NCBI GenBank assembly: GCA_903908715.1
Contig: CAIVSY010000053.1
Span: 1,943-65,942 of the forward strand
DNA length: 64,000 nt
Direction of reading: 5' to 3'
Source: an uncultured bacterium
GTDB taxonomy: Bacteria; Verrucomicrobiota; Kiritimatiellia; CAIKKV01; CAITUY01
Shown here: piece by piece, positions 18,916 to 58,153 of the stretch
Numbering within the stretch: the stretch's first letter is position 1
How the letters are laid out: every line of letters starts with the position of its first letter
Translations under genes and position numbers: made by a program
The notes under the pieces: model-generated
What the model was told of the DNA's origin: nothing
The model's input: only the letters and a program-made list of their open reading frames with translations
Database searches by the model: none

Positions 18916-18948
18916 TCTTCACGTCTCATGCCATGCACATTCGCGTTT

Positions 18949-21306: not shown

Positions 21307-21387
21307 GGGAGCGCCTTCGGCGCGGTTATCGGTTATCCGTTGTTGGTTATTGGGAGGCGTACAGACGGAGGGTCTTCAGTCTACAGT

Positions 21388-21624: not shown

Positions 21625-21651
21625 GATTTACCTCTCGCCTTGAAGATGATG

Positions 21652-21771: not shown

Positions 21772-21857
21772 CGTCTCCAGTCTCCTCTTCCCGTAGTCCG
21801 TAGTCCGTCGTCCGTAGTCCCTCCCCTCCCCTCTCCCAATAGTCTAACGTCCAACGT

Positions 21858-37384: not shown

Positions 37385-37387
37385 TGA

Positions 37388-37510
37388 AGACGTTAGACCT
37401 TGGACGTTGGACTCATGACAAGGGGAAGACTTTGGACTATAGACTTTAGACGTTGGACTCATGGGGAAGAGGAGACTGTAGACCTTGGACGTTGGACTGG
37501 GTTGTGGACT
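37388..37510. repeat. GACNNNN heptamer array (downstream arm of four-helix-bundle element 1)
   Basis: GACGTTA GACCTTG GACGTTG ... GACTTTG GACTATA GACTTTA ... GACTGTA GACCTTG GACGTTG. Confidence 0.85.
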
Positions 37511-37544
37511 TGTCATGTCTGTTGTCTGGCCATAAATTTCTCTA

Positions 37545-37973
37545 TCATCTGAGCACCATACCGCAGGAGAGCGCAAGGAAACTTGTGACACGGGCAAGCG
37601 TTCGACTGACAACACCGGCCTCCTTCTCGACTGACCGGATGAGGCCCGCCAGTATGCGCAGGGTCTCTTCAGATGCTTCCGTTAATGTTCGTTGCTGAAT
37701 TATGTCCAAGTATCCGAGTCGTCCGGCCAAATGAATGAAGTACCGCGTCTCCGATAGCGAACCTCGAGCAATGTGCAGGAAGTGAAGGTAATCCTTGAGG
37801 CTTTCCCGGGAAGATCCTTCGACAATATTTGCGGGAACGGAATAGGCAGCACGACGAAGTTGACTTGTCAGGGAATAGATTTCGTCCTTCGGAAATGATC
37901 GCGTCGCCTCGTATACCCCCACCGTTAGATCGTCCGCTTTTTTCCACGCTACTATTTTCGTATAATCACGCAT
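37545..37973 (-). CDS. Four helix bundle protein (23S IVS-protein/Avd-like), copy 1
   Basis: AWKKA, FPKDEIYSLTSQLRRAAYSVPANIVEG, FLHIARGSLSE. Confidence 0.93.
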   Translation of the reverse strand: MRDYTKIVAWKKADDLTVGVYEATRSFPKDEIYSLTSQLRRAAYSVPANIVEGSSRESLKDYLHFLHIARGSLSETRYFIHLAGRLGYLDIIQQRTLTEASEETLRILAGLIRSVEKEAGVVSRTLARVTSFLALSCGMVLR

Positions 37974-37984
37974 CTTGTTTCTTT

Positions 37985-38052
37985 GGTCTGACGACTTTGT
38001 CCATGGTCTAACGCCTATGGTCTATGGTCTAACGTCCATGGTCTATAGTCTA
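37985..38052. repeat. GTCYANN heptamer array (upstream arm of element 1), overlapping the 3' end of the acetyltransferase gene
   Basis: GTCCATG GTCTAAC GCCTATG GTCTATG GTCTAAC GTCCATG GTCTATA GTC. Confidence 0.85.
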
Positions 38053-38668
38053 ATCCCCCCTCCCCCTCCCACCCCACATCCTCCACATACCCCTTCGAAC
38101 CTTCATAAGATACCACTTTGGCCGGGATGCCTACAACGACCGCGTTGTCCGGCACATCACTCGTCACCACGGCGTTGGCTCCGATCGCCACGTTGTTCCC
38201 CACCGTCACCGCCCCGATCACCTTGGCCCCGGGGCCGATATATACATTGTCGCCGATCACCGGATAGCCCTTACGCCGCCCCCGGTTCGCTTGCCCGATC
38301 GTAACCCCCGGCGAAAGGTTGCAATTCTTGCCGATCCGGCTGTGACCGTTGACGATGATGTTTCCAAAATGCCCGATGTAGAAGCCTGGTCCGATCTGCG
38401 TCCCGTACGGGATCAGGATGCCGTACTTGAACATGCAATGCCGCAGCATGAGGCGGGCGAGGAGGTGGAGAGGAAACAGGAAGAGATTGGAGATTGGAGA
38501 TTGGGTTTTCGAATTGGGATGTGTATAGGCGCAGGTACGCATCCAGAAAATGTAGGCCCAAGCCTCGCCACAGAACAGTTCGCGGAGGAAGGCCCGGACG
38601 CCTATCCGCCCACCGGTGGCGCGGTAGAGGTCGGAGCGGACCAGGGATTTGTATTCAGTGAAGGTCAT
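38015..38668 (-). CDS. Serine O-acetyltransferase-like hexapeptide acetyltransferase (WcaB/EpsC type)
   Basis: IGPGFYIGHFG, GVTIG, IGDNVYIGPGAKV, IGANAVV, VVGIPAK. Confidence 0.92.
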   Translation of the reverse strand: MTFTEYKSLVRSDLYRATGGRIGVRAFLRELFCGEAWAYIFWMRTCAYTHPNSKTQSPISNLFLFPLHLLARLMLRHCMFKYGILIPYGTQIGPGFYIGHFGNIIVNGHSRIGKNCNLSPGVTIGQANRGRRKGYPVIGDNVYIGPGAKVIGAVTVGNNVAIGANAVVTSDVPDNAVVVGIPAKVVSYEGSKGYVEDVGWEGEGGLDYRPWTLDHRP

Positions 38669-38687
38669 GGGGGGATGCGGTATAATG

Positions 38688-38900
38688 GACTACGGACTAC
38701 GGAAGGAGGAGACTATGGACTATAGACTTTAGACGTTAGACTGAAGACCAAATGCGAAGACTTTGAACAGAAGCAAACGAATGATTCATGCTGGAGGGCG
38801 CCGCGCTGTCGGCGCCGTTCTTCCCACACCGGCGGCAACGGCGTGCCGCCCTCCAGGTGCTCTGGCACCGTTACAGTCTACGGACTATAGTCCAACGTCC
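38688..38900. repeat. Composite intergenic repeat: GAC heptamers, MITE end and TGGAG REP doublet
   Basis: Heptamers at 38688-38750; GAAGACCAAATGCGAAGACTTTGAACAGAAG; inverted REPs at 38792-38855. Confidence 0.8.
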
Positions 38901-39976
38901 CCACTTACCATTCTCACGACTTCCCACCACGCACCGATCGCCTCCCGATACTTCGGGGGCCACAAGGCGGCCTTGATCAGATCCCGTTTGAAGGCCCTCC
39001 TGACCCGCCTCCATTCCGCCTCTTCCCCCTTCCCGTCCGTCGTCCGTAGTCCGTAGTCCGTAGTCCTATAAACACGCCCCAGCAACTCAATCCGCCGCCA
39101 CCGGTCCCGGCCATGCACATTCGCCGCCGGCCGGCGCATGAGGCTCACGTCCTCGAGCGACAGGCCTGAGAACCCCGCCGCGCGAAGGTTTTCCAGCGCG
39201 ATTTGGTCCGCGCAGGCCTGCTGCTCCTGATACCTGGCGAACGTGATGGCGTTGGCATGGTTGCGAATCAACACCAGCGGCTCGGCCAGATTCGCCGCCC
39301 GCCCCCGGCGCATCAACGCCGACCACAGTCCGTAGTCCTGGGCATAGCGCAGCGATTCATCATATTCCAACCGGTCCCTGGAGGGCGCCGCGTCCGCCCT
39401 GAGCAGCGTCGTAGGGCTGTCGGCGCCGCTCTTCGAACCATCGGCGGCAACGGCGTGCCGCCCTCCATCAATACCCTGCCGCCACATCACGCTGGAATGT
39501 CGGAACCCATTCTGCAGCAACAGGTTCCACCGCAGTGCTCGATCGCCCAGCAGCGGGATCACCGGTTGTGGGTCAACCCGCCCAGCCTCGTCAATCCATT
39601 GCCAGCCGCACCCGAGCAACACGACATCCGGATGTGCCTCAAGGAACTCCACCTGGCGGGCCAGCCGTTCGGGACGTGAGACATCGTCGTCATCCTGGCG
39701 GGCGATATAACGCCCCGTGCAACGGGCGAGGCCGATGTTCAGGGACTTGGTGAGCCCCACGTTGGCGGGGTTGGTGATCCGCCTGATCCGGGGATCTGAG
39801 TAGCTGTCAAGGATCGCCGCCGTCCGATCCGTTGACCCGTCATCCACGATGACGAACTCGAAATCCGTGAAGGTCTGGGCCAGGACCCCGTCCACGGCCT
39901 CGCGCAGGTACCGTTCGCCGTTGTAAACGGCCATGAGGACGCTGACGAGGGGGGGGGATGAGGGGGAGGGGTTCAT
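38885..39976 (-). CDS. GT2 glycosyltransferase with REP and heptamer inserts
   Basis: VSVLMAVYNGE, IVDDGSTD, IARQDDDD, AQDYGLW. Confidence 0.9.
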   Translation of the reverse strand: MNPSPSSPPLVSVLMAVYNGERYLREAVDGVLAQTFTDFEFVIVDDGSTDRTAAILDSYSDPRIRRITNPANVGLTKSLNIGLARCTGRYIARQDDDDVSRPERLARQVEFLEAHPDVVLLGCGWQWIDEAGRVDPQPVIPLLGDRALRWNLLLQNGFRHSSVMWRQGIDGGRHAVAADGSKSGADSPTTLLRADAAPSRDRLEYDESLRYAQDYGLWSALMRRGRAANLAEPLVLIRNHANAITFARYQEQQACADQIALENLRAAGFSGLSLEDVSLMRRPAANVHGRDRWRRIELLGRVYRTTDYGLRTTDGKGEEAEWRRVRRAFKRDLIKAALWPPKYREAIGAWWEVVRMVSGDVGL

Positions 39977-40087
39977 GGTTACATTGGGGCGGTTGGGGGC
40001 AAGTGGTGCCGATTGATCAGTTTACAGTCTACAGTCCCTTCTAGTCCGTTTGCACGCTGGTGCCCCTGCCCAGACATCGGAGAATCT

Positions 40088-40244
40088 GAACAGAAGGAAA
40101 CAAAGGAAACGAAGTTAGGAGTGATGGCTTCCGCCGAAGGCGGCAACAAAGGCCTCTTTGTTACCTTCGCTGCCTTCTGTTCGAACTCTTCGCATCTGGT
40201 CTTCAGTCTTCAGTCTACAGTCTAATGTCTAATGTCTACAGTCC
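40088..40244. mobile_element. Palindromic MITE-like element, copy 2, followed by a GTC heptamer array
   Basis: Same termini and internal organisation as the 21652 copy; followed by GTCTTCA GTCTTCA GTCTACA GTCTAAT GTCTAAT GTCTACA. Confidence 0.75.
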
Positions 40245-41553
40245 CTTTGCCTCCCCCCATCACCTTGCGATACACCGCCAGTTCCATCTCCACGATCCGG
40301 TCCAGGCTGTAGTGTTCGACCGCGAACTGGCGGGCGTTGCGGCCCAGGCGCTCACGGAGAGCGGGGTCCCCCATCATCCGCACGATCGCCGCCCGGAGGC
40401 TGACCGGGTCCGTACCGCACAGCAGCCCGGTCTCCTCATGCCGGATGACCTCCCGGATCCCGGGCACGTCCGTGCCGATCACAGGCATCCCGCAGGCCAT
40501 CGCCTCGATCAGGGTCTTGGGATGGCCTTCGTACAACGAGGGCAGGACGAAGAACGCATTCTGGCGCAGGATGCCCGCAATCTGCGAATGCGGAACGTTT
40601 CCCAGAAACTGGACATTCACCTGGTGCGCCTGTGCCAAAGTCGCCAATTCATTGTGTAGCGACCCCTCCCCGACCAGGACCAGACGCAGATTCAATCCCT
40701 CCGAGGCAGCAATGAGTGCTGCCAGGTTCTTTTGCTCAGCCAACCGCCCAACGAAACACCCGCTGGCGGCCACGGGCGCCCCCGCAGTGGCCACAGCTTC
40801 GGCAAAAGGCCCCGCGGATGTTCCTGTCGACGTCTTTGCGCCAATCCTGACTTGGCTCGAAGAATCATTACAACCGCTCATCGACAGGGACATATCCCCC
40901 CTGGAGGGCGGCACGCTGTTGCCGCCGTCCCCAAGCGCCGAGAAATCCACGTAATTCGGAATAACGGTAATCTTTTCGCCCTCTATGCCATAGTTCCGGA
41001 TCAGCACCTGCTTCGCATCTTCCGTTGTGACTACGCACTGGCTCGCACAGCGGAATGCCTTCGCCTCCATCCGCCTTGCCTCATTCGCCTCGCGGGAACA
41101 GGCCCCATAAGCCCGCTCCTCGAATTCAGACCACAAGTACCCGCAACGTGCCACCAGAGGTTTGCGCCACAGCCGAGCCGCACATACGGCAACATCTGAT
41201 CCCTTCATCTGGTTCGTCTTCAGAATATCCGCGTGTCGCAATACGCGCCAGTGGATGAAGCACGCCATTCTATAATAGAGATCCTCGGGCAAATTCCACG
41301 AATTGCAAACTATTCCTATGCCATGCATCCGAGCTGCGTACTTGAGTTCATTCCTGCCCCCATATGTCAGAAATACAACCTCAACGCCGCGCTTACGAAG
41401 CTCCCTGTATACCGCAATCTCTCTTTCCAGGATTCCTATTGTATCCCAAGCCGCCAAGGACATGCCCTTTGTAAAAATCACAATCACGTTGAGCCGGCTA
41501 TAATTTGTCGTAGCGCTTTGCTGCAATGCCAAGGTTGTTGATTGATTGATCAT
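40222..41553 (-). CDS. GT4 glycosyltransferase with in-frame insert
   Basis: VIPNYVD, FVGRLAEQKN, SLYEGHPKTLIEAMACG. Confidence 0.9.
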   Translation of the reverse strand: MINQSTTLALQQSATTNYSRLNVIVIFTKGMSLAAWDTIGILEREIAVYRELRKRGVEVVFLTYGGRNELKYAARMHGIGIVCNSWNLPEDLYYRMACFIHWRVLRHADILKTNQMKGSDVAVCAARLWRKPLVARCGYLWSEFEERAYGACSREANEARRMEAKAFRCASQCVVTTEDAKQVLIRNYGIEGEKITVIPNYVDFSALGDGGNSVPPSRGDMSLSMSGCNDSSSQVRIGAKTSTGTSAGPFAEAVATAGAPVAASGCFVGRLAEQKNLAALIAASEGLNLRLVLVGEGSLHNELATLAQAHQVNVQFLGNVPHSQIAGILRQNAFFVLPSLYEGHPKTLIEAMACGMPVIGTDVPGIREVIRHEETGLLCGTDPVSLRAAIVRMMGDPALRERLGRNARQFAVEHYSLDRIVEMELAVYRKVMGGGKGTVDIRH

Positions 41554-41713
41554 ATTTACATTATCGTGGGATAACGTCCCGCAAGACTAGCATGAGTATT
41601 ACGATGAGAATTATATAGCTGGCGCCAGTATCCCTCCCAGGCCTCGTTTACAGAGAAGCCTCCAGAAGCGGTAATTCGACATAAATGCAGGACAGCCGTG
41701 ATCAGGCAACCTA

Positions 41714-42607
41714 TTAATAGGGATCCAATTGTAGCTTTTCCTTGGCAAAACGGATCCACTTCTCAAGACTGCCTTCGTCCGCGTTTTTACTAAGCACCTT
41801 TTGCGATCCTCGACCTAAATGCATAAACAACACATTGTTCTCATCATCCAGCGCCCTATCAAAACCAAGCGAATCAAAATCAGTTCCCGCAAGTAGAGCA
41901 CCTTCCAGTTCCGGATTAGTATGTGTGTTTCGGCAAGCGATCACTTCATACCCGGCATTCCTAAAGGCAACTGTAATCTGATCGCCCACATCATACTTTG
42001 GCAGTTCCGGCATTACGGACACCCTCAATCGCCTAAATTCCTGGAAGTCGAACAGGCACCCCAGGATATGCACGACCCCTGCGGGGGTCCGAACTGCATC
42101 CATCCTCACCCCAACAGCCTTCGTTTTACCGTTCAACTTCGACATCAGATACGAGAGCCATTGCCCGTGACATAATATGGTGTCCATGTGCAGCGTCATA
42201 CAATACCTTGTGTCTGTTGGAAATTGCAGAAAGGCCGCCTCCAGCGCCACCCCGTTTGCATAACTGCCTGAACCAGGATCATCCCTGATAAGAAGATAAT
42301 TCACCTTGTTATCCTTCATCAGTTTCTCAATATAGACAGGATTGGAGTTGTTATCGACAACCCAGATTTCATAGGGGCGATCTGTATACTTTATAACAGA
42401 ACGGATACAGAGACGAACAAGGTCCACGGCGGCTTGGTTCGGCAGTATGGATACAATAACGATTCGCACAGAATCTGCTGAACGCTCAGCGCTGCGCACG
42501 ACTCTGCATGCGTAATTGGTGCCCGCCACTTTCACTGTGGCTCTTTTTCTGAGCCCCATTCGAACGCACGCCCTAAACATTTCCAATGATTTACGCAGTC
42601 TATGCAT
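41714..42607 (-). CDS. GT2-like glycosyltransferase
   Basis: YEIWVVDNNS, LHMDT, YDVGD; start uncertain. Confidence 0.65.
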   Translation of the reverse strand: MHRLRKSLEMFRACVRMGLRKRATVKVAGTNYACRVVRSAERSADSVRIVIVSILPNQAAVDLVRLCIRSVIKYTDRPYEIWVVDNNSNPVYIEKLMKDNKVNYLLIRDDPGSGSYANGVALEAAFLQFPTDTRYCMTLHMDTILCHGQWLSYLMSKLNGKTKAVGVRMDAVRTPAGVVHILGCLFDFQEFRRLRVSVMPELPKYDVGDQITVAFRNAGYEVIACRNTHTNPELEGALLAGTDFDSLGFDRALDDENNVLFMHLGRGSQKVLSKNADEGSLEKWIRFAKEKLQLDPY

Positions 42608-42623
42608 TTTAATGTTGTGGCAG

Positions 42624-43265
42624 TTACGCCTTGCGACCAACGACATATATAGAATCACACCAGTCCATGCGGAATACATTGCACACAACGCTAACCACAG
42701 GCTTTTCCCACCAACGCGGTCCAGGCCGCTTGTTTGAGCGTGCACATATTATAGGCTCAAGCCCTCCCAGCATCATTAGTGCACACAGGTTGAGGTAATT
42801 CCAAGGCGTTATGTGGGTGGGATGACTTTGCTGCCTCACTGGATGACTGGGATTAGGCACGCCAATCTCAAGCACCCCTCCGGGTTTAACATGCGCAGCC
42901 AGCTTGATGGCTATTGGGAGTGCTTCGTTAAAGGCCAAATGCTCAAATGCTTGATTTGACGCAACAACGTCATATTCCTTCACTATTGGAATTTCTTGAA
43001 CCGATGAATAAGTAAATATTTGCGAGGTGTCAGAATCGCAACTTTCATATCGCATATCGTCGATGCCTAGCATCCTCTTCAAGGGCATCTGGGCTCCACA
43101 ACCAAAATCCAACACTTTTCCTTCAGGACAACAACCGTGATAGTATCTGCAAAGCCATGGGTAAGCGCCGTCCGTGATCGGCAAATCAAGGATATTCCCG
43201 AATCGCCTTTGAGCACGAACGCAATAGTCAAAGAATTTCTCATAAGGTACTGTGTCAGCGTGCAT
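42624..43265 (-). CDS. Class I SAM-dependent methyltransferase
   Basis: VLDFGCG, YDVV..QAFEH, VKPGG. Confidence 0.82.
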   Translation of the reverse strand: MHADTVPYEKFFDYCVRAQRRFGNILDLPITDGAYPWLCRYYHGCCPEGKVLDFGCGAQMPLKRMLGIDDMRYESCDSDTSQIFTYSSVQEIPIVKEYDVVASNQAFEHLAFNEALPIAIKLAAHVKPGGVLEIGVPNPSHPVRQQSHPTHITPWNYLNLCALMMLGGLEPIICARSNKRPGPRWWEKPVVSVVCNVFRMDWCDSIYVVGRKA

Positions 43266-43292
43266 CTTGGCCTGCTTCCTTTTTCTAAGAAA

Positions 43293-44234
43293 TCACTTAA
43301 GCTGGCAACAGGCCAGATAAAGCTCTGTTATCCCTTCAATTCTGTTGATTTCGATACTGGCATGCAATTGCAGGTATTCACGCAGCACTTTCTCTATAGC
43401 GGAAGGAGCCTCCGCTGGCTCAACAAACCCAACACCCGCATTTTTGACGATCTCCGGATGACCTCCTGACTTTCGATAAACGGCCGGCAATCCACAAGCG
43501 AGTGCTTCAAGCAAAGCGTTTGAGCAAGGGTCGTTGATGCTAGCTGCAATATAGATGTCGTGCTGCCGCAGAATGCCGGCAAGTATCGGCGAGGCAACCG
43601 GTTCAGAGAGGCGAATCCAGTTAAATTCACAAGATGTACGCCCAACAAATCGAAACTCATAGCGGTCCTTGTCTAGATGAGCATCCAAATATTCAAGCGT
43701 GTCTGCACCTTTGTTGGGATTATCCGACCAAGCCGTTGAGATCAAACGGACTTTCCTGCAACCGTCTGGCGGAGCAATCCGCCCAGACTCGTGAAATATG
43801 GCGGAGTCTACTGCATTCGGTATAACGCAGGGGGAGCGAAACTCATACCCCATGCGGCGGTATTCTCCTAAGCTGAATTCAGACTGGAAGATTGAGGCGT
43901 CGGCCAGGTCCCGATTATACTCCCACACCTTGCGATCAGAACCATCGTCGTATCCGCGGTATGAGGCCTTCGGCCCGTCCACCCGATGCACCATCCGGAT
44001 GTTTGGATAGCGGCGCTTGACGTCGTAAAGATAGGCTGCATCGAAATTCATCGAGTTGAAAAGGCAAGCGCGCGTCCATCTGCCGACAATATTAGCGGAG
44101 CATCGAATCCCGCGCTGTTCCACCGTCCGCTTGAAGGCTAGCATGAACTGGTTTCCGCCGCCATAAGGTGGCGGGCGGAAATCATGCATGAGGGCAAGTG
44201 GCGGGCGAACCAGAGAATTGATAAAGTGCACCAT
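43293..44234 (-). CDS. GT4 glycosyltransferase
   Basis: YGGGNQF, IPNAVD, NKG, DPCSNALLEALACGLP. Confidence 0.88.
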   Translation of the reverse strand: MVHFINSLVRPPLALMHDFRPPPYGGGNQFMLAFKRTVEQRGIRCSANIVGRWTRACLFNSMNFDAAYLYDVKRRYPNIRMVHRVDGPKASYRGYDDGSDRKVWEYNRDLADASIFQSEFSLGEYRRMGYEFRSPCVIPNAVDSAIFHESGRIAPPDGCRKVRLISTAWSDNPNKGADTLEYLDAHLDKDRYEFRFVGRTSCEFNWIRLSEPVASPILAGILRQHDIYIAASINDPCSNALLEALACGLPAVYRKSGGHPEIVKNAGVGFVEPAEAPSAIEKVLREYLQLHASIEINRIEGITELYLACCQLK

Positions 44235-44323
44235 ACTACAATTCGCCTTGCATTGTAGGCCTCAGCTCAAAGATGGAGCTATGACGCTCAGATCTGGCGC
44301 GAAACATGCTGGCCTTAATATTT

Positions 44324-45094: not shown

Positions 45095-45157
45095 ACTCCA
45101 CCCAATTCTATTTTGACATTAATGGCACATGATCGCGTTATTCAAAGACAATCGGCT

Positions 45158-46231: not shown

Positions 46232-46287
46232 TCGCAACCTGCGCCCTATTGGGAATTATTTTCGCCCGAATGCACACCAGAAGCATC

Positions 46288-47999: not shown

Positions 48000-48009
48000 T
48001 GCTCCCGCT

Positions 48010-48690: not shown

Positions 48691-48694
48691 TTGT

Positions 48695-50011
48695 TCATCC
48701 TTGGGATAATTCGATGTTCCACTCGGCGTCAACATTCACCAAGCCCCGTGCGATCACACCTCCTAAAGGTCTTACGGCAAAGGACCATTCAGGAGCGGCG
48801 CGCGTAAAGGTCTCCATGGTGTCGTCGTCGCGTATCGCAAACATCGGAAAATACCGTCCAGGCATTAAATGATGACATCTAATCATCATTGTTACGCAGT
48901 AGCGACCTACGGCCAATGGTTCGAATACCTTCCCGCCGGGGTCATTGCTAACCTTCCAGATCACCTGTGACCCCCGCTCGTCCATGATGGCTACAGAAAA
49001 GTAAGGTCGGGTTGAGGGCCGGTTTACATTCAGTTCGCATTGCAGAACCAGGGGCTCTGCCATCCCAACCTCGCGACCACTGGCCATAAGCCTAAAATCC
49101 CGCACCTGAATGGCTTCCGAGGCAGCCACGGCAACCCCGCTGCCACGCTGCCGTTCCCCTCCCCCAGACCGCCTCTTCACACATAGATCCTGATAACAAC
49201 TGACGGCCTCAGCAGGCGGTCCCTGATAAATCATTTTGCCCTTATCCAGAACGATCACTCGCCCGCACAGGTTCCGCACCTGTTCAAGATTGTGGGAGAT
49301 GTAGATGATCGCCTTAGCCTTCTTCTTATACTCCGACAGGTATCGCAAGCTCTTGTTCACAAACGAGTAATCCCCCACCGCAAGCACCTCGTCCACCAGC
49401 AGGATGTCCGGCTCGCCATGGATCGCCACGGCAAACCCAAGACGCACGTGCATGCCGGAGGAGTAGGTAGCCAGAGGAGCCTCCAGGAAGTCACCGATTT
49501 CCGAGAACTTCGCTATCGAGTCGAACTTGCTATCGATCTCCGCCTTGGACATTCCCAGTATCGCCCCATTGAGATAGATATTCTCCCGCCCTGTCAAATG
49601 GGGGTGCATTCCGGCCCCCAGGGCGATCAACCCCCCCACCCGGCCCCGCGTCAGGATCTCACCGGTATCGGGCGGGAAGACCGAGTTCAACACCCGCAAC
49701 AAGGTGCTCTTACCCGACCCGTTCATGCCAATGATGCCCAGCGACTCGCCCTGGTGAAGATCGAAGGAGATATTCTTCAACGCCCAGAATTCGTCGGCGC
49801 GCAACGCTGGTGAAGCGTGATGCGTGACGGGTGATGAGCGAGAAGGCCAGCATCTGCTTGGCAAAAGGAAGTCGCGGGCCAGCTCCCCTATCCCATACCA
49901 CATGGACCGCTTGAGGTTGCGGCAGAACTTTTTCGAGACGTGCCTTACCGATAAGACTACGTCTTCCGGCAGGGAGAGGGCGGAGGGCGGAGGCTGGAGA
50001 CTTGAGGGCAT
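48695..50011 (-). CDS. wzt: Polysaccharide ABC exporter ATP-binding subunit with C-terminal carbohydrate-binding domain
   Basis: FWALKNISF, GMNGSGKST (Walker A), YSSGM, LLVDEVLAVGD, plus a C-terminal extension. Confidence 0.93.
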   Translation of the reverse strand: MPSSLQPPPSALSLPEDVVLSVRHVSKKFCRNLKRSMWYGIGELARDFLLPSRCWPSRSSPVTHHASPALRADEFWALKNISFDLHQGESLGIIGMNGSGKSTLLRVLNSVFPPDTGEILTRGRVGGLIALGAGMHPHLTGRENIYLNGAILGMSKAEIDSKFDSIAKFSEIGDFLEAPLATYSSGMHVRLGFAVAIHGEPDILLVDEVLAVGDYSFVNKSLRYLSEYKKKAKAIIYISHNLEQVRNLCGRVIVLDKGKMIYQGPPAEAVSCYQDLCVKRRSGGGERQRGSGVAVAASEAIQVRDFRLMASGREVGMAEPLVLQCELNVNRPSTRPYFSVAIMDERGSQVIWKVSNDPGGKVFEPLAVGRYCVTMMIRCHHLMPGRYFPMFAIRDDDTMETFTRAAPEWSFAVRPLGGVIARGLVNVDAEWNIELSQG

Positions 50012-50052
50012 ATGCGGGGAGGAGTTTGAGTCGGATCGTGAAATAATAAGAG

Positions 50053-50409
50053 TTACGTTTTTCTCTGTTTGACGTTTTTTGACATTGCGACGAATATTGA
50101 AATCAATTCGTTTACCTCTTTTTCGAGCCAGTCTGAATTTTCATTTTAAAAACCACATTCCTCTCGCAGCAGCTCAAGCCAATACAATGTTTCGTCAGCC
50201 TCCTGGGCGCACAGGTCAATCTTTGACAAAAACTCCGCATCTGAACGAGCTCTTGACGCCTCACGGTAATTGGCCCCAACCGAAGTCCCAGAACGAAGCA
50301 TCTGATGCCCAACAACTTGAACTTCCCGTCGGTTCATCGGCAGTGCGACATACAGCCGAATGATCCGCCCGGCAAATTCCTTCGTCCTTTTTCTCAGATC
50401 CTGCGCCAT
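50053..50409 (-). pseudogene. Four helix bundle protein copy 2 with an internal in-frame TAA (50146-50148)
   Basis: QMLRSGTSVGANYREA..EADETLYWLELL; past the stop the frame continues NENSDWLEKEVNELISIFVAMSKNVKQRKT*, the expected fourth helix. Confidence 0.75.
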
Positions 50410-50450
50410 TCTCCCCTTTCAGACTCAAGTCTCATCCCTCAGCCCTCTCT

Positions 50451-51350
50451 TCACACCATCCTCTCAATCAACTTGTTCTCGCTCACGTAGAACAGCCGCC
50501 AGGCCATCATGAAAAACAGAAAGGCGCCGAGGGCACTGATGGCGTAGCCCAGCGGGTCGTACAACCGACCAAACAGGATGAGGTCGCGGCAAGAACAGAC
50601 CAGATAGGTCAGGGGGTTCCAGCGGATAACAGCGTGCGCAAACGGACTGTCCACCTCGCTGGTGTACACTATGGGACTGGCAAACATCAGCAGCGGGAAC
50701 AGGAGGTTGACCGCCTTGGACAGGTCCATAGCCACGACCCCGATCAGGGAGAGCAGCAGCCCGATGCCGGCAGCCAGGAAGAACAGCGGAAGCGCCACGA
50801 GGGGGAACAATAGCGCCCAGGGACTGGGCACCACCCGGAAACACAGGGCCACCGCCACGCAGAAGACCAGGCTGAACAGGGACGTCGCCAGGTTCTGGGC
50901 CACCTGCTTGAACAGCAGGATCTCATGGGGAAAGTTCACCTGCAGGACCAAGTCGCTGCCCGACTGCAGCGTCGTCCCCGCCGCCGTCAGGATCCCCATG
51001 AACAGCGTCCAGACCGTCGTCCCCAGCAGCACATAGACCGGATAGGGCACAGAGGATTCCCCGGGGTTGAACATGCCCGTCCCGCGCAGAAACAGCCACA
51101 TTACTACAGCACTTAAAGGTGTCAGTATAGCCCAGGCCAAGCCGAGAAACGATTTCTTATAGGCTCCAAGAAAGTCACGCTTGAACAACTGCCATATCAG
51201 CTCACGTGAACCATACACATTCTGCGCCATGACTGCCCAGGTTCGGAACATCCCTTGCTCGTGACGCATATTGGGGCGCGAAACATTAACGGTGCGCGCT
51301 GGGTTCATGCAAACAGCGGAGGCAGAGTGGTTACGACTCATTGTTGTCAT
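50451..51350 (-). CDS. wzm: Polysaccharide ABC exporter permease
   Basis: RDF..YK.S.LG.AWAIL.P, about 6 TM segments, SPIVY, WNPL; adjacent to wzt. Confidence 0.93.
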   Translation of the reverse strand: MTTMSRNHSASAVCMNPARTVNVSRPNMRHEQGMFRTWAVMAQNVYGSRELIWQLFKRDFLGAYKKSFLGLAWAILTPLSAVVMWLFLRGTGMFNPGESSVPYPVYVLLGTTVWTLFMGILTAAGTTLQSGSDLVLQVNFPHEILLFKQVAQNLATSLFSLVFCVAVALCFRVVPSPWALLFPLVALPLFFLAAGIGLLLSLIGVVAMDLSKAVNLLFPLLMFASPIVYTSEVDSPFAHAVIRWNPLTYLVCSCRDLILFGRLYDPLGYAISALGAFLFFMMAWRLFYVSENKLIERMV

Positions 51351-51394
51351 CCGTGCGGGTTATGCAGCGATTGGAGCAGCCATAAATATATATT

Positions 51395-52246: not shown

Positions 52247-52851
52247 CACAGGAGCATCCTCGCATTGAGCATCCTGCGATAAAGACGAAGCATGACGGAT
52301 ACTTGTGGCTTTGGCCACCAGCGGCACCACCCGATGCGCCCCTCCCACTTCAACACACAGTGGCCAAGAAACCGTACAGCCATCTCCCGTTCATGCCTCC
52401 TGTCGTTATCATGCCAGACAATCAAGCCGCCCGGACGAGTGTGACAGGTTGAAAAAGCAAAACTTCCGGAACGCCCATCACTTGCTTGCCTCGCCGATCG
52501 AGGGCCATCGATAAAGGTCATATCGAATGCCGAACCATCATAAACAACAGGATCTTTCAGGACATCACGATTCCCTTTCGGGTATACATCGTACAATCGA
52601 ACGTCCACGCGACTCGTATGCCGATGGCCCGCCAATGCAATCTTCACAAGCTGGACCCAGTCCGCGTTGTTGTCCCAAGAGACTATTGTGGCAGAAGTTT
52701 CCTCCATCCAGAATCTTGTAGTGTTCCCACTGCCAAATTCAGCGATGCGCTTAGGGCTGACTTGCCCCAGGAGATTCCGGTAGATCCGAATCTCCTCTTC
52801 ATTAAGAACGAATTCCTCAAGTTTCATGGATCGCAAACCGCTTTTGGCCAC
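52246..52851 (-). CDS. Class I SAM-dependent (O-)methyltransferase
   Basis: IAEFGSGNTT, FDMTFIDGP, GGLIVWHD. Confidence 0.8.
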   Translation of the reverse strand: MAKSGLRSMKLEEFVLNEEEIRIYRNLLGQVSPKRIAEFGSGNTTRFWMEETSATIVSWDNNADWVQLVKIALAGHRHTSRVDVRLYDVYPKGNRDVLKDPVVYDGSAFDMTFIDGPRSARQASDGRSGSFAFSTCHTRPGGLIVWHDNDRRHEREMAVRFLGHCVLKWEGRIGWCRWWPKPQVSVMLRLYRRMLNARMLL

Positions 52852-52971
52852 GTCTTTTCTTGCATCGCCAACGAACTATCCGGGATGGTCGATGTCTCAC
52901 TCGCGGTCACCCCCGTGCCGCAAGCCCACTTCCGCCGTGCATCTTCCGCCCTCACCGTGTAACGTGTTGCC

Positions 52972-53922
52972 ATGCATATTCTTCTCACCATCGACATCGA
53001 ATCCGCCTACGGCGACTACGAACGGGACGTCCATGCGGGCGGGCTGGGGCTGGATTATCTGCTCGCCTCGCTGCAGGCGTCGGGACTGAAGGGCACGTTC
53101 TTCGTCGAAGCCGCCAGCGCGACGGCTAGGCCCGAGGCGGATCTCGCGGACACGTGCCACCGGATCCTGGCGGCCGGCATGGACCTCCAACTCCATGTCC
53201 ACCCTGAAATGGCCGCCCTGCCCGGCATCCTCAATACCGACGGCGTCCTGTGGCGCAACACCCGCGGGGAACAGGCCCGCCTGATCGCCGCCGGGCGGGA
53301 CAGACTTGCGAAACTCACAGGGTGCAGTCCCGTCGCCTTCCGCGCCGGGAGTCTCACGGCCAACACCGACACGCTGCTCGCTATGAAGGATTGCGGCCTC
53401 ACGCTCAGCTCGAATCGGGATCTGGACACTCATAGCTCCATCGAATCGCGGCTGAATGATGTCTTTCCCGTAGTAAATGATGTTTCCACCTTCATGGGCA
53501 TTACCGATATCCCTGTCTCGGCTTTCCGCAGTCCCCTGCCACGGCTGGATGGCGCATGGCGCCATCTCGAACCTTGCGCCTTGAGCCTGGGGGAAATGAC
53601 CTCCGCACTCACCGCTATGCACCGGGCTGGTTACCACTCCGCTTGCCTCTTGACGCATCCTCATGAGTTTTACTACCGCCTTGGCAACCGCTACCATATC
53701 AACCATATCAACCGCCGCCGCTGGGAAGGCCTCCTCAAATTCCTCAAGTCAGCACCCTGGGCCAAGGTCACGACCTTCGCCTCCCTCCCATCTCTCCTCA
53801 CGTCTCATCCCTCACCCCTCACCCCTCACCCATCCCCCCCACCCATCAGACTCCCTGTTTTCTGGAGCCTGTACAGGCTTGCGGAACAGGCTCTGAAAAG
53901 GGTACACGGGGTGAGCCGTTAG
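52972..53922 (+). CDS. Polysaccharide deacetylase family protein
   Basis: LTIDIE, TFFVE, QLHVHP, FRAG, HPHEF. Confidence 0.88.
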   Translation: MHILLTIDIESAYGDYERDVHAGGLGLDYLLASLQASGLKGTFFVEAASATARPEADLADTCHRILAAGMDLQLHVHPEMAALPGILNTDGVLWRNTRGEQARLIAAGRDRLAKLTGCSPVAFRAGSLTANTDTLLAMKDCGLTLSSNRDLDTHSSIESRLNDVFPVVNDVSTFMGITDIPVSAFRSPLPRLDGAWRHLEPCALSLGEMTSALTAMHRAGYHSACLLTHPHEFYYRLGNRYHINHINRRRWEGLLKFLKSAPWAKVTTFASLPSLLTSHPSPLTPHPSPPPIRLPVFWSLYRLAEQALKRVHGVSR

Positions 53923-55121
53923 GCGGTAACGGCGTGCCCCCCCTCCAGAGTCGCCTTGGATTGAGCAAACACGGCGTCATACTCCTTCAACATGCGGTCG
54001 AGTGAAAAGGCTTCAGCCCAGCGGCGCCGCCCTTCCATCCCCATCCGCGCACGGGCAACATGATCACTGGCGAGGGAACACAAGGCCCGGGCCACAGCAG
54101 CGCAGTCACCAGGATCCACCAGAACCCCCGTGTGACCATCCTCGACTATTTCAGGAATCCCCCCAAGCCGGCTTGCCAGAACCGGCCGACCGGCCCGCAT
54201 AGCCTCCAATAACACAAATCCAAAGGCTTCAGGTTCGGCCGACAACAAGACGGCCACATCACCCGCGGCCAGACAGGCCGCACCATCTGGTCGGTTTCCC
54301 AGAAAGAGAACGCTTTCTGAAATACCAAGTGTCCGGGCCAGCTCCCGGGCTGCGTCCAGCCGCTCACCATCACCAACCAGCACAGCCCGCGCGTTCCGCA
54401 TGCCCGCATCCACTGCCATTTTCCAGGCATTCAGGAACCCCTCCTGCCCCTTCCAGGAATAGAAACGGGCCACATATACAAAATCCACAAAACCGGTCTT
54501 CCTCGCAGGATAATCAGATTGCAAGGGCATCTCTGAATCAGGCAATCCATGATGGATCACACCGCCTTTGACCGTTGCGCGTCCAAGTTTACAGGCCCAT
54601 AGCGCCCTGACTGCACTCGAGTTGTAGATAACGCCTGAAACACAATGATAGCAAAGGCGTTCGATCAGGGAACGGACCACATGTCTGGCCGCCATATCCT
54701 GCCCGGGATGTGTATGTGCAATGGCCAATATCTTCCGCCGCGGGAAAACCCATCGCAATGCCAAGGGCAGCGTTTCACAACCAAACTGGTTGGTCAGCAG
54801 TACCGCGCCCGTGACGGAAGACCGGATTCGTCTGAGAAAGCGGACATCTTCCCTGAAACGGGTCCCATACCCCAGCAGGAGAAGCATGGATCTCATGGCG
54901 GAATGCCTCGTCAACCAGGAGGTATTACCCGGCCTCACCGCTTCCGGAACCACACCCCCGGTGTTCGATCCGGGGTCAAATGGCAATTCAATGAATTGAA
55001 TGCCCCTTCCGCGCCATTCCGCCTCAACCAACTGCACAAAGGTCGATGTCCCTGCAGGATCCTTCCTCCAATTCCCATGAATAAAGTAGGTGACCGATAA
55101 ACGGGACATCACAAAATCCAC
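53919..55121 (-). CDS. GT4 glycosyltransferase
   Basis: VARFYSWKG, EPEAFGFVLLEAMRAG; paralog of 25872. Confidence 0.9.
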   Translation of the reverse strand: MDFVMSRLSVTYFIHGNWRKDPAGTSTFVQLVEAEWRGRGIQFIELPFDPGSNTGGVVPEAVRPGNTSWLTRHSAMRSMLLLLGYGTRFREDVRFLRRIRSSVTGAVLLTNQFGCETLPLALRWVFPRRKILAIAHTHPGQDMAARHVVRSLIERLCYHCVSGVIYNSSAVRALWACKLGRATVKGGVIHHGLPDSEMPLQSDYPARKTGFVDFVYVARFYSWKGQEGFLNAWKMAVDAGMRNARAVLVGDGERLDAARELARTLGISESVLFLGNRPDGAACLAAGDVAVLLSAEPEAFGFVLLEAMRAGRPVLASRLGGIPEIVEDGHTGVLVDPGDCAAVARALCSLASDHVARARMGMEGRRRWAEAFSLDRMLKEYDAVFAQSKATLEGGHAVTA

Positions 55122-55158
55122 TCCAGCGAATCAGACCCGTGTACTTGAGAGGCAACCC

Positions 55159-56244
55159 CTAAATCAGACCCCGGTAGGACACTATCAGCGCCCTGTCCAT
55201 CAGCGGAACCTCCGCCTTGCGCCCCAGGAAATAGAATCCTGATGCCGCGTCGTAAGCCGCCGGCTTCCGGGATAGCCAGCCATCGAGATACTTGAGCCAG
55301 AATGCCGTGAGGCGTCCGGCCATAAAAGCCAGCCGGCGCCCGCTTCTGGAGGAGCAACAACTCATCAGGAAGTACTGCCAGGACCACGCCAGCGCCGTTC
55401 CCGGGCCGCAGGCAATACCACTATCAATCTCGGAAAAGTCGCGAAACAGGCGACGATGCCCAAGGTGCGTGTAACGTGTGAAATCATAGCAGCCGCCGTG
55501 GACCTGCTGCATAAAAGGGGTTTCGGCATACACCACGCCACCGGGCGCCAGTACCCGGTGAATCTCCGCAACGGCCCGCGCCGGATCGGGTAAGTATTCC
55601 AGCACCGCCTGCGCCACCACCCCATCGAATGTTCCATCGGCAAAAGGAATATCCTGCGCATCGCACACCAACCCGGTCCGCGAACCGAAACCAATGTCGG
55701 TTTCGACGAGTTCAATAGCAGGATCGCTCAAGAGGGCGTCAAACCCCACCCCGGCTTCCGCACCACCAAGGACAAGTACTCTGGGAGGCTCCTGCCATGC
55801 AGGTGCCGACAACGCGGCGCCCTCCAGAGAACACCGGGAATTGGAGGGCGACACGCCGTTGCCGCCGTTCCCTGCCGTTGGATCAAGGCTGTTCCTCTCA
55901 CCTCGCACCCTTTGCTTCACCAGGCTCGCGAATTCCGGCAATACCCGCGCCGCACAAACATTGCCCGTGATGCCGGGGAGAACACGATAGAGGAATCCAG
56001 AACCTTTCCGCCGACCTTCGGCAGCGGCGGTCACCCCACCCGAACGATAATCGGAAATCGAAACAAGACTGCGGGATTCGTTCAGCAGCACGGGAATCCC
56101 TTCCACCACCGGAAAACCCTTTGCACAAGCCGGCGCCATACAGGTGAACGAGGTGACGCCCGAAGTCAGCACACCCCCGCAAACGGGGCAGCGCAAGGCC
56201 TGCACAATGGCTTGACTGAACCGCAGGTTGTCTGCCCCGTTCAT
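55159..56244 (-). CDS. Trm112-like domain fused to a class I methyltransferase, with in-frame REP doublet
   Basis: LRCPVCGG...C...FPVVEGIPVL, then VLVLGG, PFADGTFD, RVLAPGG. Start moved to MNGADN. Confidence 0.85.
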   Translation of the reverse strand: MNGADNLRFSQAIVQALRCPVCGGVLTSGVTSFTCMAPACAKGFPVVEGIPVLLNESRSLVSISDYRSGGVTAAAEGRRKGSGFLYRVLPGITGNVCAARVLPEFASLVKQRVRGERNSLDPTAGNGGNGVSPSNSRCSLEGAALSAPAWQEPPRVLVLGGAEAGVGFDALLSDPAIELVETDIGFGSRTGLVCDAQDIPFADGTFDGVVAQAVLEYLPDPARAVAEIHRVLAPGGVVYAETPFMQQVHGGCYDFTRYTHLGHRRLFRDFSEIDSGIACGPGTALAWSWQYFLMSCCSSRSGRRLAFMAGRLTAFWLKYLDGWLSRKPAAYDAASGFYFLGRKAEVPLMDRALIVSYRGLI

Positions 56245-56246
56245 GA

Positions 56247-57554
56247 TCAATGGATAATCCTGTTGAAAATAATGATCGAGATATAGATGTAGACCACACT
56301 GAGAAGGGTGCCGATCGTGCAATAGACAAACAAATCCCTCCGAACATCGATCAGCGGCGGATGATCCTCCGGTAAGGCCCGTTGCACGAGCACCGGGACC
56401 ATGTTGGCCAAGCCGAACAGCATAAAAAGCGGGAACACAAAGGTTCGGCTCAAGAAGTAGGCGCTCGCCGCAAAACCCGCAAGCGAAGCCATGGTCATAC
56501 CCGCGAGGCGCTTCAGATAGATCTGTCCCGGCGTCCGGGGCCGACGCAGGGCAACCAATGAACGCCAACATCCGATGAACCCCAGTTGCAACAGGGAAAA
56601 CCAAAACCAGTATCCCACCAACCCCATTTCCCCATAACAGGACACATAGGCATTATGCACCGGCCTCGAGGTCTCCGTGGCCTCCTCAATCATGCCATAC
56701 CCCAGCCCGAATATCGGATTGTGCTTGAAGGCATAATTGGCATCACCCCAGAGCGCGACACGCTCACGGGCGGACTCATCCATCATCTTCCCGCCCATGG
56801 TTCCACAAAGCACCAATCCGCCAATCAACGCCAACACACCCGCATACGGCAACCAACGGGCCGGCAGGCGGGTGAAGATTATCGCGACGACCATGGCAAT
56901 GGCGGCAATCAACCCACCCCGCGATTCCGTAAAGGTGGAAGCTTTGTACAGGAATCCGGCCCCCCCCGCACAAAGCGCAAAAGTAAAAAAGTTCATTCGA
57001 TAGGGCAGGGCGAAAACCAGCGGGATGGTGCTGACAAGGATCTGCGCCAGATCATTCGGATCCTCGAAAATGCCGAAGAAAAGACTCCGGACCTTGATGG
57101 CACCGGTGAACTCATCCTCCTGATAGACCGGCGTTTGCCCGACGTAACCGAACCCCGTCTTCCTCTGCATAAAAGCATGAATCGCCATGATGATGGCACT
57201 GAGAACAAAGACCCAGCTCATCATCCTCGCCCGCCGTGGCGTCTGCAGAACCACACACAACAGAATCAGAAAAAAACAGGGGCGGAAGGTGGCCGGAACT
57301 GTATCCACAAGCCCCTGAAAGTAGAAATGAACAATCTGGGAAAGAATACTGGCAAACCACAAGCCAACAGCCAGAGCAATCGCAGGCGTGCGGGGGAAGT
57401 AGTACGTTTTCTGGCTGGCCTCCATGGCCAACGTCAACAGGGCCACATAGATGACCGCATCAAGCACCGGATACCCATACATCCAGGGAAACAGCCAGTC
57501 CTGCGGCCGCCAGAAGACCAGGAACATGAAGATTAATGTTAAGGGGAAAGTCAT
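56247..57554 (-). CDS. O-antigen ligase/Wzy-like polymerase
   Basis: About 12 TM segments, FEDPNDLA, TESRGG, PIFGLG, HNAY...GEMG. Confidence 0.88.
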   Translation of the reverse strand: MTFPLTLIFMFLVFWRPQDWLFPWMYGYPVLDAVIYVALLTLAMEASQKTYYFPRTPAIALAVGLWFASILSQIVHFYFQGLVDTVPATFRPCFFLILLCVVLQTPRRARMMSWVFVLSAIIMAIHAFMQRKTGFGYVGQTPVYQEDEFTGAIKVRSLFFGIFEDPNDLAQILVSTIPLVFALPYRMNFFTFALCAGGAGFLYKASTFTESRGGLIAAIAMVVAIIFTRLPARWLPYAGVLALIGGLVLCGTMGGKMMDESARERVALWGDANYAFKHNPIFGLGYGMIEEATETSRPVHNAYVSCYGEMGLVGYWFWFSLLQLGFIGCWRSLVALRRPRTPGQIYLKRLAGMTMASLAGFAASAYFLSRTFVFPLFMLFGLANMVPVLVQRALPEDHPPLIDVRRDLFVYCTIGTLLSVVYIYISIIIFNRIIH

Positions 57555-57647
57555 TGGGAGCGCCTTCGGCGCGGAGATTGGTTATTCGTTATTGGGAGAT
57601 GCATCAAGGAGAACTGGTTGTCGGAGGATTCCACCAATCTTGTACAC

Positions 57648-58055
57648 CTAATCCCCAATCTCCTTCTTCCCCTTCTCAACCCCGCCTGCACGTTGAAGAT
57701 ACGCAATATATCCGTTCAGTGTTCTTACAGCCCGCGCAACCAATTCCTCGCCCTTCTGAAACAGTGCATCAGAAACCATGCCCTCGTCATGCCCTGTCAC
57801 CAAATGATCCAACGTCTCATATGCCGAACCACGGGAATTGCAGCCGAATTTCGCGTTATCGAGGTAGTGAAAGCGGCCATACCCCTCGGCAATGTTCGCG
57901 GTTGTCGACCGTGCCGCACGAATCAGTTGATCGCCCAAGCGATACTTTTCGTCTTTAGGCAACAATGGCAGCACTTCCTTCGCAACATACACCCGCAAGT
58001 CCCGACAAGCCTTCCAACAATCCAAATCACGAAAGGTCCTAAAGCGTTCCGCCAT
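57648..58055 (-). CDS. Four helix bundle protein, copy 3
   Basis: FRDLDCWK, LPKDEKYRLGDQLIRAARSTTANIAEGYGR, RGSAYE. Confidence 0.93.
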   Translation of the reverse strand: MAERFRTFRDLDCWKACRDLRVYVAKEVLPLLPKDEKYRLGDQLIRAARSTTANIAEGYGRFHYLDNAKFGCNSRGSAYETLDHLVTGHDEGMVSDALFQKGEELVARAVRTLNGYIAYLQRAGGVEKGKKEIGD

Positions 58056-58153
58056 TGCCAATCTCCAATAACCAATCTCGAATCTCTCACATCATACACG
58101 CGCCAATTGCCACGCCTTAATATCTTCGAAACGCTTGATCCCCATATTCCCTC

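Follow-up and report, generated by a model that had tools for sequence, protein, structure and literature searches.

Inverted heptamer arrays around PF05635 genes suggest a widespread cassette type related to the intervening sequences of 23S rRNA

Why should a small gene, from a family first found within 23S ribosomal RNA, recur three times in a polysaccharide locus, each time enclosed by inverted arrays of a seven-nucleotide unit? The question is raised by a stretch of 64,000 nucleotides (hereafter the window; C53:1943-65942) from the genome of an uncultured bacterium of the Kiritimatiellia (G000; 3.05 Mb in 118 contigs, 59% G+C), in which three genes of the PF05635/TIGR02436 family, here copies 1 to 3, are each flanked by two mutually complementary arrays, or arms. 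The results presented below suggest that all three loci belong to a single, widespread type of cassette, which is related to the intervening sequences (IVS) of 23S rRNA and is possibly an overlooked mobile cassette. Labels in C, G, L and f denote contigs, genomes, loci and families in our own numbering.

The three cassettes of the window

Profile searches place the three genes, all on the minus strand, within the family: copy 1 (37545-37973) matches PF05635 with E 1.6e-33 (115.5 bits) and TIGR02436 with E 9.7e-34 (115.9 bits), copy 2 (50146-50409) with E 1.6e-14 (54.4 bits) and 2.2e-19 (69.7 bits), and copy 3 (57648-58061) with E 1.1e-21 (77.5 bits) and 1.8e-20 (73.1 bits), all above the curated cut-offs of 33.8 bits for PF05635 and 24 bits for TIGR02436. 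The nearest solved relative of copy 1 is XCC0516 (PDB 2gsc, E 2e-21, five chains) and the structure 2rld is also similar; by likeness to these two, the window proteins are predicted to adopt a four-helix-bundle fold. Copies 1 and 3 are intact open reading frames (ORFs), and copy 2, being interrupted by an in-frame TAA after residue 87 (around model position 81), is probably a pseudogene. The features are as follows, in window coordinates:

37388-37498, minus strand: downstream (3') arm region of cassette 1, with three AGAC/GGAC-type arrays (37388-37413, 37427-37459 and 37473-37498)
37545-37973, minus strand: ORF of cassette 1, 142 residues, intact, a predicted four-helix-bundle protein (PF05635/TIGR02436; 2gsc, 2rld)
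37979-38060, minus strand: upstream (5') arm of cassette 1, GTCT/GTCC arrays on the plus strand, of which Tandem Repeats Finder reports 37999-38052 with 7.7 copies
49974-50018, minus strand: downstream arm of cassette 2, GAGGGCG-type units on the plus strand
50053-50409, minus strand: broken ORF of cassette 2, 87 residues, TAA at 50146-50148, then 30 in-frame codons resembling helix 4 (model positions 6-103)
50421-50449, minus strand: upstream arm of cassette 2, adjoining the stop codon with which the ABC-2 permease gene (50451-51350) ends
57574-57595, minus strand: downstream arm of cassette 3, TTATTGG/GAGATTG-type units on the plus strand
57648-58061, minus strand: ORF of cassette 3, intact, 137 residues from a TTG within the array or 135 from the ATG at 58055
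58058-58086, minus strand: upstream arm of cassette 3, CCAATCT/CCAATAA units on the plus strand
58092-58145, minus strand: what remains of a different four-helix-bundle gene: 17 codons (MGIKRFEDIKAWQLARV, followed by a stop), 15 of the first 16 residues being those of the L022 protein

A first-pass annotation of the window had described inverted period-7 arms around all three genes, and both the arms and its match counts are reproduced here. In copy 1, 37474-37497 pairs with 38027-38050 at 21 of 24 positions by hand count, a pairing which extends to 37464-37497 against 38027-38060 (34 nt, 79%); in copy 2, 49983-50006 pairs with 50424-50447 (24 nt, 83%) and in copy 3, 57574-57595 with 58058-58079 (22 nt, 86%). 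Tandem Repeats Finder returns a period of 7 for the arrays flanking copies 1 and 2, and the arms of copy 3 are made of degenerate CCAATxx units. On the sense strand of the gene, the 5' arm of cassette 1 is purine-rich and its 3' arm is rich in C and T.

The complementarity of the arms exceeds chance by two measures. As RNA duplexes the arms reach -70.5 kcal/mol in copy 1 (z -6.7, equalled in 0/300 shuffles), -53.1 kcal/mol in copy 2 (z -5.2, 0/300) and -26.9 kcal/mol in copy 3 (z -3.6, 2/300). When the whole of cassette 1 is folded, its arms pair in the minimum free energy and the centroid structures; the total energy is no better than that of shuffles (z -0.28), and for this reason the arm duplexes were used as the measure instead. 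The second measure is a flank inverted-repeat score, which is the local alignment of the 200-nt upstream flank with the reverse complement of the 200-nt downstream flank, set against a background of 2331 crude ORF 'genes' of the same genome (median 8, 99th percentile 12). Copy 1 scores 17.5 (rank 4 of 2331), copy 2 scores 14 (rank 8) and copy 3 scores 13 (rank 11). Among the 49 genes scored in the window, a value of at least 12.5 is reached only by copy 1, copy 2 and an IS200-like gene; since the crude ORF caller misassigns strands, the bounds of the four-helix-bundle genes were set by hand, and it is only with these bounds that copy 3 reaches 13 and joins the other three. Arms are thus commoner around these genes than around others of the locus, contrary to the condition which the first-pass annotation had named as refuting its claim.

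Layout and units of the cassette across bacteria

Is this layout particular to one genome? Matches to PF05635 are found in 36 of 41 genomes of the same order, and the loci of relatives were scanned with 325-nt windows reaching 75 nt into the ORF call, since the called start is often covered by an array. Arms with a score of 13 or more are present in 22 of the 25 loci with sufficient flank, 18 of them having period 7 in both arms, one a mixed 7/8 period, two period 8 and one period 6. A scan of species-representative genomes by seven-sequence alignment yielded 80 further loci from about 25 phyla, which include Acidobacteriota, Planctomycetota, Chloroflexota, Nitrospirota, Bacteroidota, Clostridia, all proteobacterial classes and lineages of the candidate phyla radiation. 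Flanks are usable in 74 of these distant loci, and in 63 of them the arms reach a score of 13 or more, as compared with 1 of 280 control windows, which were shifted by 700 or 1000 nt within these loci. Both arms have period 7 in 57 of these 63, and seven fits best in 123 of 156 flanks; the median arm length is 30 nt, and by a crude measure 131 of the 156 flank arrays have fewer than five units, the counts falling sharply above five.

The orientation of the cassette relative to its surroundings is less uniform than the window suggests. The first-pass annotation had placed the genes always between co-oriented neighbours, which holds for the three window copies and for only part of the loci elsewhere: among 57 callable ones both neighbours are co-oriented in 36, and the upstream neighbour in 46. 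The arms themselves have a marked polarity with respect to the ORF, as on the sense strand the 5' arm has more G than C in 48 cassettes and less in 9, with 6 ties (binomial 1.5e-7), and is purine-rich in 52 cassettes against 8.

The protein and its units are both conserved. In the seven protein pairs with estimable dS, dN/dS lies between 0.04 and 0.19, and the four-helix-bundle protein is under strong purifying selection. Co-variation of heptamer and protein clade, which the first-pass annotation had proposed as a test, was found: among 85 cassettes, the unit is shared (at least 6 of 7 positions) in 14 of the 25 pairs with at least 70% amino acid identity, in 7% of the pairs at 55-70% identity and in 2% of those below 55%, counts which are descriptive, the pairs not being independent. 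The unit is the same at 7/7 positions in five pairs, drawn from four clades, whose proportion of synonymous differences (pS) is 0.69-0.85, at or close to saturation; over such distances drift would have altered a neutral repeat, and the sequence of the unit is therefore constrained. The same clade with the same unit is found in Nitrospirota and in Desulfobacterota. Moreover, L052 and L084, which occupy one syntenic site, differ in their units, GGGACT(T/A) in the former and GGGACGA in the latter, and in each of them the other arm is complementary to match. Change in one arm is thus accompanied by change in the other, and the unit follows the protein clade and is held more constant than neutral drift would leave it.

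The surroundings of the distant cassettes are varied. An rRNA match is present in 0 of the 80 distant loci scanned with Rfam, in which only tRNA, 6S and two small RNA families were matched, and 2 of the 80 sit among tRNA genes. Cassettes L047, L036 and L074, from Planctomycetota and Verrucomicrobiia, lie inside or adjoin tRNA gene clusters, that of L047 with eight tRNAs. Cyanobacterial plasmid copies have the same layout, with the stop codon within the array. Those on pNPUN02 of Nostoc punctiforme PCC 73102 (NPUN_RS35280) and on plasmid C of Trichormus variabilis ATCC 29413 (AVA_RS28115) both have CAGGAGT/CAGAATT arms; another (L179, on a Picosynechococcus plasmid) has AGGAGAT arms and its gene lies between cmr2 and cmr3. 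An association with CRISPR, reported for the PF05635 family, may partly reflect cassette insertion of this kind.

Mobility, further arrays and the host genome

Empty orthologous sites, which had been named as a thing to look for, do exist. The spacer between ykuD (an L,D-transpeptidase gene) and aspS holds a four-helix-bundle cassette in 6 of 30 loci, namely those of the own genome (degraded), G007 (a remnant), G011, G002, G024 and G008, with three protein subfamilies and three units (CCATTAA, CAGAATC and GGGTTCA). It is empty in 19 of the 24 loci with 1500 nt of upstream sequence, congeners of the filled genomes among them; G004 has only two CCTGAAC units, as against a full cassette in G008. 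Filled and empty spacers share no alignable sequence, so that no boundary or target-site duplication can be read from them. Elsewhere, the proteins of L008 and L010 are 93% identical and have no flanking homologs in common, and four cassette pairs, including L052/L084 and L082/L099, are syntenic across large divergence. The cassette, arms and ORF together, is inherited and moved as a unit. In the window, the 17-codon remnant just upstream of the arm of cassette 3 points to cassette turnover at that site. Among the Wzt loci of relatives 22 of 24 are without a four-helix-bundle gene, these being paralogous operons and not strict empty sites, and a metagenome scan with the neighbouring GT2 glycosyltransferase protein returned one relative, 29% identical, and no near-identical strain with an empty site. 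No recombinase was linked to the cassettes and no target duplication was identified. There is also no transposase or reverse transcriptase inside them, as the first-pass annotation had stated, the three reverse transcriptase (RVT_1) genes of the genome being on contigs C70, C8 and C54 and none near a four-helix-bundle gene.

The own genome has eight PF05635 matches, five of which fall within the top 16 of the 2331 genes (top 0.7%) by flank complementarity. Besides the three window copies, the copy on C50 has complementary arms with the unit AAAGCAG (rank 7) and is also placed between permease and ATPase genes, and the copy on C48 has complementary arms with the hexamer GATTAC (rank 16). The copy on C111 has a CCATTAA array on one side only and a frameshifted ORF, that on C33 is truncated by the contig end, and that on C94 (G000:C94:1772-2089, L138) lies without arms between cas4-like and cas1-like genes.

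Heptamer arrays are by no means restricted to these genes. Considering Tandem Repeats Finder arrays of at least three copies, a score of at least 35 is reached by 57 of 103 arrays of period 7, and by 2/58, 6/124, 3/14, 10/21 and 2/4 of those of periods 5, 6, 8, 9 and 10, so that the over-representation of tandem 7-nt arrays described for bacterial genomes is present here as well. The contig of the window is the densest in arrays (34 rows of Tandem Repeats Finder output), and some arrays are short-loop hairpins without an ORF. The unit of copy 1, AGACnnn/GTCTnnn, belongs to the commonest unit family of the genome and recurs in the window at 20139-21820, 38710-40243 and 58264-58296. The claim that each gene has a heptamer of its own thus holds in part: arms are indeed present at each window copy, but the bulk of the heptamer arrays of the genome lie away from four-helix-bundle genes, and units are not private, being shared with many ORF-less arrays. 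Solo arrays share the unit of a resident cassette in 45% of cases, against a mean of 23% for units from other genomes, with 2 of 500 control sets reaching 45%, a weak test as the list of resident units was picked by eye.

In the window all three genes are embedded in the polysaccharide locus, on the same strand as their neighbours: copy 1 between genes for a hexapeptide acetyltransferase and a GT2 protein, copy 2 between genes for an ABC-2 permease and a Wzt-like ATPase, and copy 3 upstream of a Wzy_C gene. The cassettes leave little room to either side: the 5' array contains or closely follows the end of the upstream gene, and the start of the downstream gene falls at or within the 3' array. 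The acetyltransferase ORF (38015-38668) runs into the 5' array of cassette 1 and stops inside it, and the 3' arm abuts the ATG (37387) of the GT2 gene 36257-37387; the downstream arm of cassette 2 extends over the opening codons of the ORF annotated as Wzt (start 50011); and that of cassette 3 is followed by the hairpin GCGCCGAAGGCGC and then by the start of the Wzy_C gene (56247-57554). A small hairpin, GCGCC-GAAG-GCGC, with TCCCA(A)TG occurs at 57555-57575 and at 21306-21325, in both cases directly after a heptamer array and before the start codon of a different gene, and may be a shared translation-start module. At the protein level copy 1 is closest to a Verrucomicrobia metagenome-assembled genome (MAG; 74%), Pontiella and Kiritimatiellales, which makes a host from the Kiritimatiellota/Verrucomicrobiota probable. 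The Rfam scan of the window gave no matches and the phage search no match; a gene for RNase III is present in the genome. Logan contigs (short pieces from three DNA runs of one study) confirm stretches of the window such as 19769-20305 and 20896-21206, and the 'joints' reported from them were dismissed as cross-matches between arrays.

Some arrays have entered coding sequences. A frame of 508 codons at 19780-21306 (minus strand) encodes a GT2 glycosyltransferase (residues 66-157 correspond to Pfam profile positions 21-112) that is broken up by blocks of AGACTTT, GTCTGTA, GTCCGTn and GGGATTC arrays, which are in frame and free of stops and roughly double the length of the protein; at 21205-21247 native coding sequence of this frame is followed by its own inverted copy. 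Smaller in-frame arrays are seen in a GT2 gene at 38885-39976 and in an ORF at 58154-58669. Elsewhere in the genome, the cysteinyl-tRNA synthetase gene (G000:C111:24147-26575, L135) has CAGAATC-type arrays on both sides and the highest flank inverted-repeat score of the genome, 22; its flank includes a stand-alone inverted CAGAATC-type pair with a loop of about 45 nt, and its coding sequence has an insertion resembling a repetitive extragenic palindrome (REP).

Two other repeats were noted. The palindrome GGCGGCA..TGCCGCC recurs in frame within coding regions, where it reads GGTPLPP or GGRHAVAA on opposite strands (window about 21527-21550 and 38790-38830, and inside the ORFs 17864-18922 and 38885-39976). 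The second, a hairpin some 100 nt long whose ends are of the type GAACAGAAG...CTTCTGTTC, is found in intergenic DNA of the own genome and of relatives, at window positions 21650-21750 and 40080-40185 and upstream of aspS in L150, L155 and L159.

Known systems and rival explanations

The closest parallel is the IVS in the 23S rRNA of Coxiella burnetii. According to PMC4990558, this element has 428 nt, with an S23p ORF inside a 28-bp stem of terminal inverted repeats, and upstream of the ORF it has GACAGAT heptamers in tandem, two or three depending on the strain; RNase III cuts at the first repeat, and the IVS is viewed as selfish and horizontally acquired, an older idea cited there being that the ORF serves mobility. 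The same text lists ORF-bearing 23S IVS in Leptospira, Brucella and Xanthomonas. The window cassettes have in common with the Coxiella element a PF05635/S23p ORF in the loop of a terminal-inverted-repeat stem and tandem heptamers beside the ORF; unlike the rRNA IVS they lie between protein-coding genes, with no Rfam match to rRNA, as do the cassettes of nearly all the relatives examined, and unlike the Coxiella ORF as that paper presents it, their proteins are under purifying selection.

A second parallel is found in heptamer simple sequence repeats (SSRs), which are likewise intergenic tandem 7-nt units, often G-rich and lineage-specific; the short tandemly repeated repetitive (STRR) sequences of cyanobacteria are heptamer repeats. 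The main text of PMC4692102 describes over-represented heptamer SSRs with no function assigned, GGGAATC in Xanthomonas (with 70-75 pairs convergent, i.e. inverted) and GGGGA(C/T)T in Nostoc, and proposes slippage to explain this over-representation in many bacteria, and that of PMC4679880 describes TAACTGA repeats of unassigned function in Beggiatoaceae and cyanobacteria. Neither main text mentions a four-helix-bundle or S23p gene; the supplementary gene lists, which lie outside these texts, may show S23p genes. The first-pass annotation had called the system undescribed, which stands for the general rule that PF05635 genes are bracketed by inverted heptamer arrays, not found in print in the literature searched (supplements and subscription literature lying outside that search), and not for its single pieces, which are already published.

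Two other assignments were considered and rejected. Avd, the accessory protein of diversity-generating retroelements (DGRs), has a homologous four-helix-bundle fold and is a pentamer that binds nucleic acid; copy 1 matches bAvd (PF22296, 24.2 bits) and DivGenRetAVD (NF033474, 27.3 bits) weakly, far below the cut-offs of 40 and 80 bits, and no reverse transcriptase adjoins it. The cassettes also recall REP/REPIN-RAYT systems, in which short intergenic inverted repeats flank their own gene and occur in addition as many gene-less hairpins. They differ from these in that the caged gene is PF05635, not a Y1 HUH gene, and is without a known catalytic domain, that the arms are tandem heptamer arrays in place of single imperfect palindromes and that the unit varies by cassette. 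The genome has two Y1_Tnp genes, and the one in the window, the IS200-like, RAYT-like gene at 18949-19599 (minus strand), has different repeats, namely REP-type hairpins on both sides (GCGGCTG-TCT-CAGCCGC, within a period-17 array), with a flank inverted-repeat score of 19.5, the second highest of the genome. The coding sequence of this gene has itself been entered by AAAGCAG-type repeats (an AAEKQSAAE stretch).

The reading that we favour, to which we give a probability of about 0.55, is that of a widespread IVS-like cassette whose protein reads its own arrays and whose arms pair in mRNA and are cut by RNase III. The PF05635 ORF fills the loop between two inverted arrays, each of about 3-5 copies of the 7-nt unit; read on the sense strand, the 5' array is rich in G or in purines and the 3' array in C. 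The protein, which in the solved relative is a homopentameric toroid, would recognise its own heptamer arrays. In read-through transcripts the arms would form a stem of 22-34 bp, which RNase III may cut as in the Coxiella IVS (PMC4990558), and the cut would free the cassette RNA and make insertion within operons or rRNA tolerable. The ORF-less inverted heptamer hairpins of the genome would then be decayed or non-autonomous derivatives. A wider form of this proposal is tentative and, in our judgement, rather improbable: PF05635 proteins would be sequence-specific readers of 7-nt arrays, with one unit per pentamer subunit, and together with the arrays would make up a ubiquitous transposase-less mobile cassette, of which STRR, GGGAATC and TAACTGA repeats, ORF-less hairpins and in-frame arrays would be footprints or offspring, the rRNA IVS being one niche of many.

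Several observations weigh against the favoured reading. Arms above threshold are absent from 3 of the 8 copies of the own genome and from 11 of the 74 distant loci. Most of the strongest period-7 arrays (53 of 56) lie more than 300 nt from any four-helix-bundle gene, and the loops of arrays away from these genes hold no recognisable remnant, there being only the eight PF05635 matches genome-wide; the co-variation counts come, as said, from pairs that are not independent. The Coxiella authors (PMC4990558) judged the ORF expendable and probably untranslated. CAGAATC arrays are plentiful where the cognate protein clade was not found (56 matches in G020, 36 in G014 and 36 in G017, three related, incomplete MAGs in which absence of the protein is not proven). 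This clade is confined to families f1 and f2, in which the arrays are abundant without the protein; among genomes G001-G040 they occur in 23 of 24 of f1, 2 of 3 of f2 and 1 of 13 of the other five families of the order. The suggestion that the protein propagates its cognate heptamer hence finds no clear support. Finally, established RNA stems normally show an excess of wobble pairs, and none is seen here, the mismatches of 63 arm pairs being on the sense strand 55 of G.U type and 62 of A.C type. This argues against selection on mRNA pairing alone, and complementarity may be kept at the DNA level; the missing wobble signature fits upkeep of this sort, for example by templated inter-arm correction together with slippage. 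The original proposal of an IVS-like cassette in an mRNA is accordingly borne out in its architecture, which is that of the Coxiella IVS (same source), and the pairing in mRNA stays a proposal.

These points bear on three other explanations. The arms could be a pure RNA-processing hairpin, a stem for RNase III that insulates the host transcripts, with the 7-nt period a by-product of slippage and a protein that is unrelated and ignores the arrays. The excision of the Coxiella IVS by RNase III (PMC4990558) and the slippage proposed for over-represented heptamer SSRs (PMC4692102) speak for it, as do the stability of the arm duplexes and the upstream gene being co-oriented in 46 of 57 loci; the missing G.U excess speaks against it, and a sequence-blind stem would not predict a unit that follows the protein clade and stays unchanged when synonymous sites are saturated, so that we consider this explanation rather unlikely. 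The wobble result sits well with a DNA-level mobile element, in which the arrays would be terminal inverted repeats used by a trans-acting recombinase (such as an HUH/Y1 enzyme that works on folded single-stranded DNA), the four-helix-bundle gene would be cargo or an accessory DNA-binding factor, and the ORF-less hairpins would resemble miniature inverted-repeat transposable elements. Filled and empty sites, three different cassettes in one spacer, near-identical cassettes in unrelated contexts, one clade and unit across phyla, the sharing of resident units by solo arrays (45% vs 23%) and the two Y1_Tnp genes, one of them in the window, are all in its favour. We nevertheless hold it to be unlikely: the comparison of filled and empty spacers gave no target-site duplication or precise boundary, the Y1 gene of the window has its own, different REP-type hairpins and no recombinase is linked to the cassettes, several cassettes (L052/L084, L082/L099) have kept their syntenic place despite large divergence, a sign of stable residence, and the G-rich-5' polarity relative to the ORF calls for a strand-specific explanation. 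Coincidence, by which small genes of a polysaccharide locus happen to fall between heptamer repeats that are plentiful in the intergenic DNA of this genome, could draw on the genome-wide occurrence of period-7 arrays, on the window contig being the densest and on the 53 of 56 strong arrays that are not beside a four-helix-bundle gene. It is highly improbable, as among the scored genes of the window complementary flanks are found only at the four-helix-bundle genes and one IS200-like gene, and as the association recurs in 63 of 74 distant loci, against 1 of 280 controls.

What the cassette would mean for the family follows from these features. PF05635 is a large family of unknown function, named for a niche in 23S rRNA in which none of the 80 distant loci lies. 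Its conserved flanks, with their fixed period, polarity, concerted arms and constrained units that track the clade, provide the family with a testable hypothesis, which is that the protein reads its own arrays. The cassette ties together the role of the IVS ORF, the over-representation of heptamers in bacteria and the presence of four-helix-bundle genes within CRISPR-cas, tRNA and polysaccharide operons. It also advises caution, in that an 'association' of PF05635 with defence or CRISPR loci may stem from the insertion of a cassette and not from function.

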